The notes under the pieces are model-generated. The model saw only the letters and a list, made by a program, of their open reading frames with translations, was not told the DNA's origin and searched no databases. From sequence record LR597658: a stretch of DNA of 64,000 bases, one strand, 5' to 3'. Below, in pieces: positions 60,424 through 64,000 of this stretch (positions are counted from its first letter, which is position 1; every line of letters starts with the position of its first letter). The position numbers and the translations under genes are program-made. This DNA comes from Escherichia phage VpaE1_ev108.

Positions 60424-61524
60424 TTACTCATAATCCCTAATAACTAGCCCTACAGGAAACTGTAAAGAACCTTTACGAGTCATCTTCTGGAACTGAACAG
60501 TTAAAGGTTTCCCGATAAACTCTTCAGGATGTTCAGCAAGATACTGTTTCTTCTCGTGTGTAGTTTTCCATGAAACATCTACAAAGACGTTAGGAAGAGT
60601 CTCTACAACGAACTTGCCATGACCACGCTTATCGGTCTTTACACCAGTCACTTTAAACTCTTCAGTGTGCATCTTCTTGTGCTTAATCAAGAAGTATGAA
60701 CGGTGACAACACTCATAGAAGGAGTCTTCAGAGATTGAACGGTACATTGCACCTTCAAACTTAGCTTCAACCCACTTATCATGAGCTTCATCAAACTCTT
60801 CCCAAGAATTTACACGGATAGTCTGTACAGGAACCACTCTACAGGTATCCCCAATCTCAACAATGGGTGAGTTATCAATAACTTCACGACGCTCAGGCCA
60901 AGATTTTGAATTGTCACAGATATCATACCAGTAGAATTTAAGAAGGTGACGGTCTGGATTGTCAGCATTCTTAATCATAGAGACAATATCTTCTAAGTCC
61001 CAACCATGAGCATAAATCTCACCATCAAAGTCTTCAACTTGTGGATGTAATTTAAGCAACAAAAGCAAATCTGGAATTAGTTCTGCTGGAACGTTGTAAA
61101 CAGTATTCTCACGAGAATAAGCTGTGAAGCTAACTGAATCAGCATCTCTTGAAATTCTACAACGAACACCATCAAGTTTTGGTTGAGCATCAGCAGGAAA
61201 TTTCAAATACTTTGCATGACTAACCTTTGCAGCATCATGAGCAAGCTGTACACCTACCTTCTCAGTATTCTGTGCAGACTCTTTTGTGTAAGCATAACCT
61301 TTACGGTCAACTTGCTTTTTATACTTAGCAGCAACTTCAAAGAGGGCTTGCTGTTCAGCATTACGCTCATTCTTTTTACCGATGTTTTTAGGCTCTGCTG
61401 TATACTCTTCAAACATCATCTTGCCATTTTCTTTACCGTAGGTTGTAATAACTTTGTCACCTACAGCAACGCATGACCAGACGTTGAAAGAGCCATCTTT
61501 ATTTTGTTTGTACAGAATTGTCAT
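60424..61524 (-). CDS. ATP-dependent DNA ligase
   Basis: 366 aa; adenylation motif I KLDGVRC, FDGEIYAHG (motif III/IV-like), size like T7-type ligases. Confidence 0.75.
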   Translation of the reverse strand: MTILYKQNKDGSFNVWSCVAVGDKVITTYGKENGKMMFEEYTAEPKNIGKKNERNAEQQALFEVAAKYKKQVDRKGYAYTKESAQNTEKVGVQLAHDAAKVSHAKYLKFPADAQPKLDGVRCRISRDADSVSFTAYSRENTVYNVPAELIPDLLLLLKLHPQVEDFDGEIYAHGWDLEDIVSMIKNADNPDRHLLKFYWYDICDNSKSWPERREVIDNSPIVEIGDTCRVVPVQTIRVNSWEEFDEAHDKWVEAKFEGAMYRSISEDSFYECCHRSYFLIKHKKMHTEEFKVTGVKTDKRGHGKFVVETLPNVFVDVSWKTTHEKKQYLAEHPEEFIGKPLTVQFQKMTRKGSLQFPVGLVIRDYE

Positions 61525-61727
61525 TTTCTCTTACCACCAATCTCTACGTCGATAACTTGAACATCGCCAGCAACATCAAACTTATGTATGATGCTTTCCA
61601 CAGTATAAGTCCAACCATCAATGCGAACCATCTCACCTTCTCGTGGAACTATTGGATTACGTTGAGCTACAGTTGTAGTGGAGTGAACAACATCATAACG
61701 ATAGATATAGTTTACTAATACTTCCAT
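61521..61727 (-). CDS. hypothetical small protein
   Basis: start moved to ATG 61727 (GAGGT SD), just below upstream stop; ORF-track start 61826 overlaps lipoprotein gene by 89 nt. Confidence 0.45.
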   Translation of the reverse strand: MEVLVNYIYRYDVVHSTTTVAQRNPIVPREGEMVRIDGWTYTVESIIHKFDVAGDVQVIDVEIGGKRK

Positions 61728-61737
61728 CGTTAAAACC

Positions 61738-61995
61738 TCACTCAATAACCGTAGTATGTGATTGACCATTTTTGCCATAGCTATAAGATGTTGTTGTTTG
61801 AGAGTTTGGGCATCTGACAACAACAATATCTCTGCTTATAGCATCACCATTGAGTTTGTAGATTTTGCAGTCTTGCATCTCTGGAGGGAGGCTGTAAGAA
61901 GCATCTTTGTTTTCATAAGATGGGTTGCAGCCAGCCAGAAAAATTACTCCAAGTGCAACCATTGCTTTCACACAACTCTTAACCTTATTGTTCAC
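61738..61995 (-). CDS. small lipoprotein
   Basis: lipobox MVALGVIFLAGC; 85 aa. Confidence 0.55.
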   Translation of the reverse strand: MNNKVKSCVKAMVALGVIFLAGCNPSYENKDASYSLPPEMQDCKIYKLNGDAISRDIVVVRCPNSQTTTSYSYGKNGQSHTTVIE

Positions 61996-62127
61996 GATAG
62001 TCTACCTCTCTGTATGTTTTTAAATAGTGAGTGATGAGTTCTGGTAATTCACTACGTTTAACGTTTGAACGAAGAAGTGTCCAGTCAAAACCTTTACCAA
62101 CCCTTCCCCAGAGACTGTACATTTTCT

Positions 62128-62361
62128 TCATAGCAACTCCAGAATATCAATACGTTCGCCTTTGAGTACTCCAGTACGGTCTTTTGCAATCTTACCGTCA
62201 ACGATAAGGATGTGTGTAGACCTTAAAGCATCGTTGTTAAAGGTTTTTACGAACTTGCTAGGCATGACTACAATGGACATCTCCTGAATTAACTCTGGAG
62301 TGTAGCAGTTATCATGAAGTTGCTGAATAACGTCTGCAAGTGTCATTTTTGATGTCTCCAA
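62128..62361 (-). CDS. hypothetical small protein
   Basis: 77 aa ORF. Confidence 0.45.
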   Translation of the reverse strand: METSKMTLADVIQQLHDNCYTPELIQEMSIVVMPSKFVKTFNNDALRSTHILIVDGKIAKDRTGVLKGERIDILELL

Positions 62362-62552
62362 TACTCAATGTCAATAAGTTCTTGTGCAATGCTTTTAAGG
62401 TTACCTTTCAAGAAAACCTTCTCAGAACCTGAAAGAGATGAATTGTCAATTAACCTGTTCATTCTCTCAAACAACTTCTGCTTACGATTTTTGATAGTCT
62501 CCTTTGAAGCACCTTTCATCATTGCTGCATGGGTTCTTCCACGATGGCTCAT
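62343..62552 (-). CDS. hypothetical small basic protein
   Basis: 69 aa ORF. Confidence 0.4.
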   Translation of the reverse strand: MSHRGRTHAAMMKGASKETIKNRKQKLFERMNRLIDNSSLSGSEKVFLKGNLKSIAQELIDIEYWRHQK

Positions 62553-62603
62553 AATCCCTCCTATACAAGATGTAGTATAAGGTACTCTTCCCTGAGCACC
62601 TTG

Positions 62604-63119
62604 TCAACTTAGTTTTGCAAACTCTCCGTGGAGTTTAATAGCAGCTTCACAGTAAGCTTTATGGGCTTCTTCTTCTGTTGTGTATGTTCCTATATGTATG
62701 GTCTTGCCATTATGGTTAATCTGGGCTATCCACTTACCAGACTTGCTTCTACTTGTGCCTTTTAAGTTTTTTGATGTTCTAGGTTGTCTCCTATTAGACA
62801 TGTTCTGCTCTTTTGTGGCCTCTCTTAGATTGTCCCAAGCGTTATTCAAACCATCTCCATCTTTGTGGTCAATGTGTTTATCAGGCCACTTACCTGTCAT
62901 CCAGAACCAAGCAATTCGGTGATTGCCTGTCCTGTATCCTAAAATCTGTGTGTGCATATACACACCAGACCTTGTGCGCTTAATTGCTCCGGCTTGGCTT
63001 CCAATAACCACCCTACTACTATGTGGAGGTCTGCCAATCCATGTTAAGACCCCTGTTTCGGGGTCATAATCTAACCAAGACTTTAACTGTTCATGTGTGA
63101 ATCCACAATCTCTCATCAA
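62604..63119 (-). CDS. HNH homing endonuclease with C-terminal AP2-like DNA-binding domain
   Basis: HNH motif HIDHKDGDGLNNAWDNLR; AP2-like GKWIAQINHNGKTIHIGTYTTEEEAHKAY; start overlaps DNA polymerase stop (ATGA). Confidence 0.75.
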   Translation of the reverse strand: MMRDCGFTHEQLKSWLDYDPETGVLTWIGRPPHSSRVVIGSQAGAIKRTRSGVYMHTQILGYRTGNHRIAWFWMTGKWPDKHIDHKDGDGLNNAWDNLREATKEQNMSNRRQPRTSKNLKGTSRSKSGKWIAQINHNGKTIHIGTYTTEEEAHKAYCEAAIKLHGEFAKLS

Positions 63120-64000
63120 TGCACCTCATACCAGCTCTTACCAACCTTACCTGTGCCAGTTACAAGCGTCTCACTCTTCAAACCTAAATTCTTAGATGCC
63201 TGACCATACATCCAGTCAGTTATGGCTTTAACTTCTTGAGTCATACTTTCTGGGCATTCCCAACTGTTTTCATCGTGGTATGCCAGCAAAAGCCTAGCAC
63301 CGATTGCTGGTTTTCGTCCATTTAATTTTGTCAACCCTTCTTCACATGCTCTTCTACAAGCAAGGTTAATTGCCTCATTTTGAATCTGAGCCTCCGAACC
63401 CATAAGCAAATAATTCAATAACTTATGTGGAGATTTACACCACAACCAAGCTCCAGCAACCTTTACGAAGCCCCCTTTAGAGATTGCAGCGGTCTTACCA
63501 AACACCTCTTCAAGTGCCTTTTTAGTTGCTTTGTAGTCAGCTTCCAAGTCATCTAGCAGCTTCTTAATTTTAGGCAAACGAATAAAGTAAGTCTGTTTAG
63601 TCAGTGCACCTTCCTGAGTAGTTGCAGCTTTAATCGTCTTAGCAAACTTCTCATCACCTGCACCGAACAGCAGTGCATAGATACCATTCTTAGCTTTCTT
63701 ACGGCCTTTGCTAATCTCATGGAGAAGGTTCTCATCCTGAGTAGCTCGACAAGTCAAGATATCCTGCTCATCATTCAAGCTAAAGTAAATACTGTTCAAT
63801 GTATGTGCATCAGTCCCTGAATAGACAACGTACAGGTCATTCTCAGAGTCATAGCGAAGGTACTTATCAATCTCTGGGTTCAGGTACTCATCAAAATGTT
63901 TGCAGTAATAGCGTCCATCTTCTTGACGAATGAACTCAATTTCTTCTTTACCTTGCGTTACCGCTTTGGTGAAGTCTTTATCACCCATAAAGTTACAAAG
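63116..64000 (-). CDS. family-A DNA polymerase, C-terminal part (gene continues beyond window end)
   Basis: palm motifs KNGIYALLFGAG (motif B-like) and LLAYHDE (motif C); ends ..GKSWYEVH; upstream portion lies beyond 64000. Confidence 0.7.
   Translation of the reverse strand, partial: LCNFMGDKDFTKAVTQGKEEIEFIRQEDGRYYCKHFDEYLNPEIDKYLRYDSENDLYVVYSGTDAHTLNSIYFSLNDEQDILTCRATQDENLLHEISKGRKKAKNGIYALLFGAGDEKFAKTIKAATTQEGALTKQTYFIRLPKIKKLLDDLEADYKATKKALEEVFGKTAAISKGGFVKVAGAWLWCKSPHKLLNYLLMGSEAQIQNEAINLACRRACEEGLTKLNGRKPAIGARLLLAYHDENSWECPESMTQEVKAITDWMYGQASKNLGLKSETLVTGTGKVGKSWYEVH

Follow-up and report, generated by a model that had tools for sequence, protein, structure and literature searches.

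The locus analysed here lies towards the end of a 64,000-nt stretch of Escherichia phage VpaE1_ev108 (LR597658), called the window below. Every gene between 58 and 64 kb of the window is on the minus strand. The locus consists of the 3' part of a gene for a family A DNA polymerase and, directly after it, an ORF of 513 nt (170 aa; ORF listing and sequence) with the domains of an HNH-AP2 endonuclease. The features are as follows.

63116..64000, minus: DNA polymerase family A gene, 3' part with motifs B and C (Pfam DNA_pol_A; frame open to 64000)
63672..63673, minus: insertion site of the motif B intron of relatives, between YA and LLFG (exon-junction mapping, 37 loci; the window is intronless here)
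63119..63356, minus: 238-nt block at the polymerase 3' end, which tracks HNH presence in the window's own clade
63116..63133, minus: left edge of the putative mobile cassette, TGG TAT GAG GTG CAT TGA (last polymerase codons)
63127-63122, minus: HNH Shine-Dalgarno sequence GAGGTG, within the final polymerase codons (sequence)
62604..63116, minus: HNH-AP2 homing endonuclease gene, type A, ATG 63116-63114 and TGA 62606-62604 (ORF listing, Pfam, PHROG)
62799..62921, minus: HNH_3 nuclease domain, aa 66-106 (Pfam PF13392)
62625..62753, minus: AP2 DNA-binding domain, aa 122-164 (Pfam PF00847)
62604..62672, minus: shared 69-nt 3' end of the ORF, encoding EEAHKAYCEAAIKLHGEFAKLS and the stop (alignment of the window, Alf5 and FO1a; junctions at 37 loci)
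62602..62607, minus: TTGACA hexamer, right edge of the insertion (sequence and junction alignment)

The upstream ORF matches positions 181-381 of the 381 positions of the DNA_pol_A model, which correspond to the C-terminal half, where motifs B and C lie. Its frame is open through base 64000 (LCNF-MGDKDF), and the gene continues past the end of the window; the homolog in phage Andreotti is one CDS of 2721 nt. The initial annotation gave the endonuclease the span 62604-63988. This span is really the 513-nt HNH gene plus the final 873 nt of the polymerase gene, and the ATG at 63988 taken as the gene start is an internal Met codon of the polymerase, whose frame is open to the window end. The rest of that description was confirmed. 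An HNH-AP2 gene (HNH_3 and AP2 matches in Pfam) lies directly after a DNA polymerase gene (DNA_pol_A), and the reported overlap of its start with the polymerase stop is found as one shared base, TGATG, between the polymerase TGA (63118-63116) and the HNH ATG. With the listed TTG at 63119 as the HNH start, the overlap would be four bases. The polymerase C-terminus was rightly called intact, as it ends (...KSWYEVH) at the same residue as in relatives without the HNH gene (...KSWLEVH). It was also correct that the gene is neither an intein nor part of a split gene: the HNH frame differs from that of the polymerase, and neither an intron nor any other RNA family was found by Rfam around the HNH gene (window 61500-64000). 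An intein-encoded or intron-encoded endonuclease and a split polymerase were rejected, given that no polymerase sequence resumes after the HNH ORF. Thus, with its own frame, a polymerase that ends where the empty-site alleles end and no Rfam intron, the HNH gene is free-standing.

At the left edge, the segment 63116..63133 contains both the HNH ribosome-binding site and the TGATG overlap of stop and start. At the right edge, the HNH stop TGA falls within the TTGACA hexamer, which is seen in empty and occupied alleles alike, so that the insert fills the intergenic space exactly. The gene downstream encodes a 69-aa hypothetical protein and occurs in the empty alleles too; in the window this ORF spans about 62343-62560. 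No further copies of the HNH gene were detected in the 64-kb window by tblastn with all four types of the protein described below.

The 170-aa protein matches PHROG 99, 'HNH endonuclease', with an E value of 1.5e-63. In Pfam, the HNH_3 match (E 1.3e-14, 54 bits) and the AP2 match (E 1.9e-9, 38.1 bits) exceed their curated cut-offs of 24.8 and 33.3 bits, and the AP2 part also matches plant AP2/ERF domains in the PDB by sequence, namely WRI1 (E 3.3e-8), ERF096, TEM1 and AtERF1. The catalytic motif DH..N..N is formed by D83, H84, N96 and N105. In the intron-encoded enzyme I-HmuI, D74, H75, N87 and N96 reportedly were identified as catalytic or metal-binding residues in the structure paper. It is on these four positions (PDB 1u3e) that D83, H84, N96 and N105 align. 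All four residues are kept in 8 of 8 type A copies examined, frameshifts and stops are absent from the eight, and pairwise dN/dS among them is 0.05-0.17, including pairs with dS of about 1.1. Judging from these ratios, the type A gene is under purifying selection. An inactive HNH motif, which the initial annotation had named as a finding that would speak against its reading, is therefore not what the locus holds: the motif is intact and the gene is under selection. Profile score and active-site residues place the protein in the HNH endonuclease superfamily, and the AP2 domain C-terminal to HNH places it in the HNH-AP2 homing endonuclease family. Proteins 98-100% identical to it in Andreotti, Si3 and other phages are already annotated as homing or HNH endonucleases. 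At the same site, the proteins of another type, type D (loci L010, L016, L018, L022, L023 and L036), have Ser in the HNH motif (NLREADDFQS) in place of its last metal-binding Asn, and an Asn is found three residues further on; type D may differ in activity from the other types.

As for expression, a sigma-70 scan reported no promoter upstream of the HNH start, with counts not above those in shuffles, and it did not report the TTGACA at 62607. A promoter or terminator belonging to the HNH gene itself was rejected, with counts that do not exceed shuffles, and so was an RNA structure masking its ribosome-binding site, the fold of 63070-63170 being no better than shuffles (z = 0.75). The depositors of phage AYO145A annotate TTGACA...TATACT as a sigma-70 promoter, 'N15-18', although its spacer measures 22 nt; this element (L038 338-371) corresponds to window 62574-62607. 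In T4, the free-standing endonuclease gene mobE is promoterless and co-transcribed with the upstream nrdA (PMC2790892). By analogy, the HNH gene, which is without a convincing promoter, would probably be co-transcribed with the polymerase gene, and its translation would probably start from the GAGGTG inside the final polymerase codons.

The window belongs to the genus Felixounavirus. Its 2-kb region around the locus is 97% identical to LF110P4 and 96% to Escherichia phage Andreotti, and it matches 258 phage records, nearly all Felix O1-like, from phages of Escherichia, Salmonella, Shigella and Citrobacter. Some matches to the polymerase region, at 90-97% nucleotide identity, come from records assigned to phages of Campylobacter (MG065664.1, A132; MG065668.1, A126), Listeria (OK283618.1, LPML1) and, in one case, Staphylococcus; these host labels look doubtful. 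A comparison with relatives, which had been suggested for defining the homing site, was made with 37 loci (5 from GenBank and 32 from IMG/VR), in alignments of empty and occupied loci that are exact to the base. Between the polymerase stop and the conserved TTGACAAGGTGCTCA, two forms are found. The empty form reads CAC TAA TTAGTA TTGACA and has nine bases, and the occupied form has an HNH-AP2 gene of 167-177 codons. The empty junction is made up of the polymerase end, TAATTAGTA and then TTGACA, and the polymerase end of these alleles follows the pattern TGG CTT/TTR GAR GTN CAC TAA. A 64-nt junction-spanning probe found it in 103 phage records, and 14 of the 32 IMG/VR loci have it too; the absence of empty-site alleles, which had likewise been named as a counter-argument, is thus contradicted. 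Close relatives therefore differ by presence or absence of the gene at one exact site.

At least four HNH-AP2 protein types, 40-49% identical to each other, occupy this site.

Type A: the window, Andreotti, Si3, a Michonne-like locus, L029 and L030
Type B: Alf5
Type C: Felix O1 / FO1a gp94
Type D: BPS17W1 and others

Type A was found by tblastn in 46 records at 80% protein identity or more, and the wider HNH-AP2 family in 2828 phage records. The last 69 nt of the gene are nearly identical in nucleotide sequence across the four types, whereas the remainder of each gene is highly diverged. The boundary of this shared end is sharp and lies at GAAGAAGCCCAT in the window and in L004, L005, L010, L016, L022 and L036. 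The empty alleles are without the 69-nt sequence, so the downstream gene can do without it. From this distribution, it is likely the footprint of recombination between cassettes. Further downstream, L009, L012 and L021 have 30-240 nt after TTGACA without any alignment to the window, and many database matches break at window 62143/62149 or 62557. These observations suggest a second variable spot directly 3' of the HNH site.

Movement of the gene between phages was assessed from nucleotide identity to the window, which was compared between the HNH gene and the 500 nt of polymerase gene next to it.

Si3: HNH gene 98.6%, adjacent polymerase 500 nt 82.0%
L030: HNH gene 92.8%, adjacent polymerase 500 nt 77.5%
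L029: HNH gene 95.7%, adjacent polymerase 500 nt 67.3%, downstream sequence unrelated

In all three, the tract of high identity starts at TGGTATGAGGT (TGG TAT GAG GTR CAT TGA) and stops at ...GAGTTTGCAA. L029 comes from a lineage of Hafnia phages, and its identity to phage Zyzzx is 91.9%. Zyzzx is without the HNH gene and L029 carries it; the two differ by the cassette and by changes that all fall within the final 24 nt or so of the polymerase gene, which makes them a pair with and without the gene outside the window's own lineage. Such a pattern, in which identity is 93-99% for type A against 67-82% for the polymerase sequence beside it, argues that the gene moves horizontally and independently of the genes that flank it. 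The view of the initial annotation that the gene is a mobile element agrees with this comparison.

The polymerase sequence just before the gene shows a pattern of its own. Empty-site genomes of the window's clade are 93-98% identical to the window upstream of the 238-nt block and 65-82% identical inside it, with a sharp edge of identity at -237 from the polymerase end, whereas identity to the window stays at 93-100% throughout the block in genomes that bear an HNH gene of type A or B. Several residues are altered by it (RRACEEGLTK in the window, RRMIDEGLMK in empty-site phages). The pattern resembles co-conversion of flanking DNA or a nuclease-resistant variant of the target, a resemblance that is supportive, not decisive; from it, the putative target likely lies within the 3' end of the polymerase gene or close by. 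The block was rejected as a universal marker of the HNH gene, since in other clades blocks are shared with or without the gene: L017 (type A) and L020 (empty) have one block in common, and so do Si3 (type A) and L032-L034 (empty). Because the linkage is not universal, the block may be ordinary mosaicism.

In Si3 and many other relatives, the polymerase gene is split in motif B. The element responsible is a group I intron in L036 (Rfam RF00028, 62.1 bits against a gathering score of 50, E 1.8e-15), and it exists in two forms. The ORF-less form has 268 nt (L036 3817-4084; BPS17W1), and the long form has 801 nt with a 160-aa endonuclease VII-like ORF. The intron of Si3 is located at L002 5672-6433. 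An intron probe gave at least 80% coverage in 94 phage records out of the 258 related ones, and the ORF-less form is present in at least 45 of the 60 intron records listed. Database records mostly annotate two 'DNA polymerase' genes at this place and leave the intron unnamed.

Taken together, the domains, the active site, purifying selection, the presence/absence polymorphism and a cassette that is more similar between phages than its flanks lead to the reading that the ORF at 62604-63116 is quite probably a functional, free-standing HNH-AP2 homing endonuclease gene, inserted at a recurrent site between the polymerase stop and TTGACA. The overall interpretation given initially, a mobile HNH-AP2 homing endonuclease gene after the polymerase, is thus supported, and the coordinates alone needed correction. 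In a mixed infection, the enzyme would nick or cut the DNA of an empty-site phage around the 3' end of the polymerase gene or around the empty junction. Repair by recombination, with the HNH-bearing genome as template, would then bring in a cassette of about 520 bp, extending from the last 5-8 or so polymerase codons to ...GAGTTTGCAA, and flanking polymerase sequence of variable length would be copied along with it. In the literature searched, no cleavage or homing test of any Felixounavirus HNH gene was found. Presence and absence alone fit both gain by homing and gain by ordinary recombination with occasional precise loss afterwards, and do not tell the two apart. A further proposal, which we put forward tentatively and regard as less likely than not, is that the site after the polymerase is a hotspot of exchange among at least four HNH-AP2 cassettes, by way of the shared 69-nt 3' end. 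If this is true, one genus displays a series that runs from an intron with its own endonuclease, through an intron accompanied by a free-standing endonuclease, to a free-standing endonuclease alone.

Other explanations of the gene have to be weighed against this homing reading. The HNH enzyme could target the intron site in motif B (63672/63673), about 555 bp upstream of its gene, instead of its own insertion site, and home in collaboration with the intron. Collaborative homing is already established elsewhere (PMC3984707, PMC10448857), and the group I intron occupies motif B in many relatives. Moreover, every ORF-less-intron genome that was checked individually (about 30 records and the BPS17W1 group) has an insert of 475-528 nt at the HNH site, sizes that, as taken from match spans, would fit types A, B, C and D, and among about 85 empty-site records inspected there is no ORF-less-intron genome. 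The pair of HNH gene and ORF-less intron is thus present in relatives such as L036/BPS17W1. This association fits homing of the intron in trans, by analogy with mobE and the T4 nrdB intron; alternatively, it fits loss of the intron's own endonuclease after the free-standing one came, as discussed for ICP1 (PMC10448857). Both remain suggestive only, because the association rests on related isolates in which about four or five type combinations are clearly independent. The window itself does not carry such a pair, as its polymerase is uninterrupted and no intron was detected in it. However, the window and its closest relatives bear the HNH gene, are intronless and keep an uncut-type motif B: over the 24 nt compared, the window sequence, TATGCACTGCTGTTCGGTGCAGGT, matches empty-site intronless genomes exactly, so that with motif B as its target the enzyme would cut its own genome. 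The motif B insertion site was therefore judged an unlikely target of type A and rejected as such. In addition, most HNH-bearing loci of the IMG/VR sample are without the intron, and introns with their own ORF occur in genomes with the HNH gene and also with the empty site, so that the intron can do without the HNH gene. On balance, motif B as the target is improbable.

It is about equally improbable that the gene is kept because it benefits the phage, through marker exclusion, interference with competitors or a role in replication or DNA processing. This idea would agree with purifying selection that is strong even at dS of about 1 and with the position next to an essential replication gene, and in phage PhiPA3 an intron-encoded endonuclease reportedly mediates competition between co-infecting phages (PMC11620839). 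Nevertheless, about 40% of related genomes have no gene at the site, so that the gene is dispensable, and four interchangeable types fit the turnover of a selfish element. Competition by cutting the DNA of rivals would in any case be a result of the same homing mechanism and needs no separate one. Decay has also to be considered, since homing endonuclease genes often degenerate after fixation in a population, and type D alleles at the same site have the Ser in place of the last metal-binding Asn. That the window ORF is such a remnant, with its activity gone, is nevertheless very hard to reconcile with a type A gene that has all four active-site residues, eight copies free of frameshifts and stops, low dN/dS (0.05-0.17) and recent transfer between diverged phages.

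As a kind, the gene is ordinary for this phage group, already known and annotated, and by itself it matters little: it is a standard selfish element of a family tied to Felix O1 since 2004. What is new is limited to the comparative picture, namely the four alleles, the empty sites, the shared 3' end and the linkage with the ORF-less intron in relatives. The locus helps to account for mosaic breakpoints at the polymerase 3' end. Felixounaviruses are numerous, grow easily on E. coli K-12 and are used in biocontrol, and their locus provides natural empty alleles, four alternative endonuclease alleles and a neighbouring intron with and without its own endonuclease. The genus is thus a convenient system for homing, endonuclease turnover and intron mobilisation in trans outside the T4 model.

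Parts of this picture appear in earlier reports. In the genome paper of Felix O1, six HNH homologs are listed, with no introns reported and no functional data (PMC3185647). In the genome announcement of phage Mushroom, a split polymerase is described with a 383-bp gap without ORF, which is not named an intron (PMC4392139). For SPJ41, two introns were found by RNA scan, and HNH regions were noted as variable among felixounaviruses (PMC9951933). Proteins that combine HNH and AP2 domains, those of Felix O1 among them, are recognised as a family of homing endonucleases (PMC5318435, PMC10448857). As these two papers present the work of Magnani et al. (2004), HNH-AP2 homing endonucleases occur in phages, cyanobacteria and ciliates, and Felix O1 proteins are among the founding examples; like that family, the window protein has its HNH nuclease at the N-terminus and its AP2 DNA-binding domain at the C-terminus. 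So far as it is presented there, the study covers the domain family and DNA binding by a cyanobacterial AP2 domain, and homing and targets in Felix O1-like phages are outside its scope.

Among individual enzymes, I-HmuI of Bacillus phage SPO1 (PDB 1u3e) shares with the window protein the HNH_3-type active site, with the same spacing of Asp-His, Asn and Asn, although overall sequence similarity is marginal (E 0.05). The C-terminal DNA-binding modules of I-HmuI are of a different kind. Unlike the free-standing window gene, the gene of I-HmuI, a nicking enzyme, lies in a group I intron within a DNA polymerase gene. In T3/T7-like phages and cyanophage S-PM2, collaborative homing has been described, and 'HEG turnover' and the 'HEG island' come from ICP1 (PMC3984707, PMC10448857). 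These loci are similar to the present one in that nuclease genes stand at the boundaries of recombination tracts. However, the endonucleases of T3/T7-like phages and S-PM2 cut the intron insertion site, whereas the HNH-bearing window keeps an uncut-type site, which argues against the insertion site as the type A target.

A close parallel in setting is T4 mobE, a free-standing HNH homing endonuclease gene between nrdA and nrdB (Wilson and Edgell, 2009; PMC2790892). Its product makes a strand-specific nick in nrdB, the gene is inherited at high frequency, and it mobilises in trans a nearby intron whose own endonuclease is defunct (PMC2790892). Like mobE, the window gene is small, free-standing and of the HNH kind; it follows immediately on an essential gene for nucleotide metabolism or replication, lacks an obvious promoter and is sporadically distributed among relatives, in some of which a group I intron resides in the neighbouring essential gene. 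The association of ORF-less introns with HNH genes in the window's relatives likewise resembles the mobilisation of an intron in trans by mobE. Nicking and inheritance at high frequency have been demonstrated for mobE; in contrast to the window gene, mobE is without an AP2 domain, and the window, unlike the setting of mobE, is intronless.
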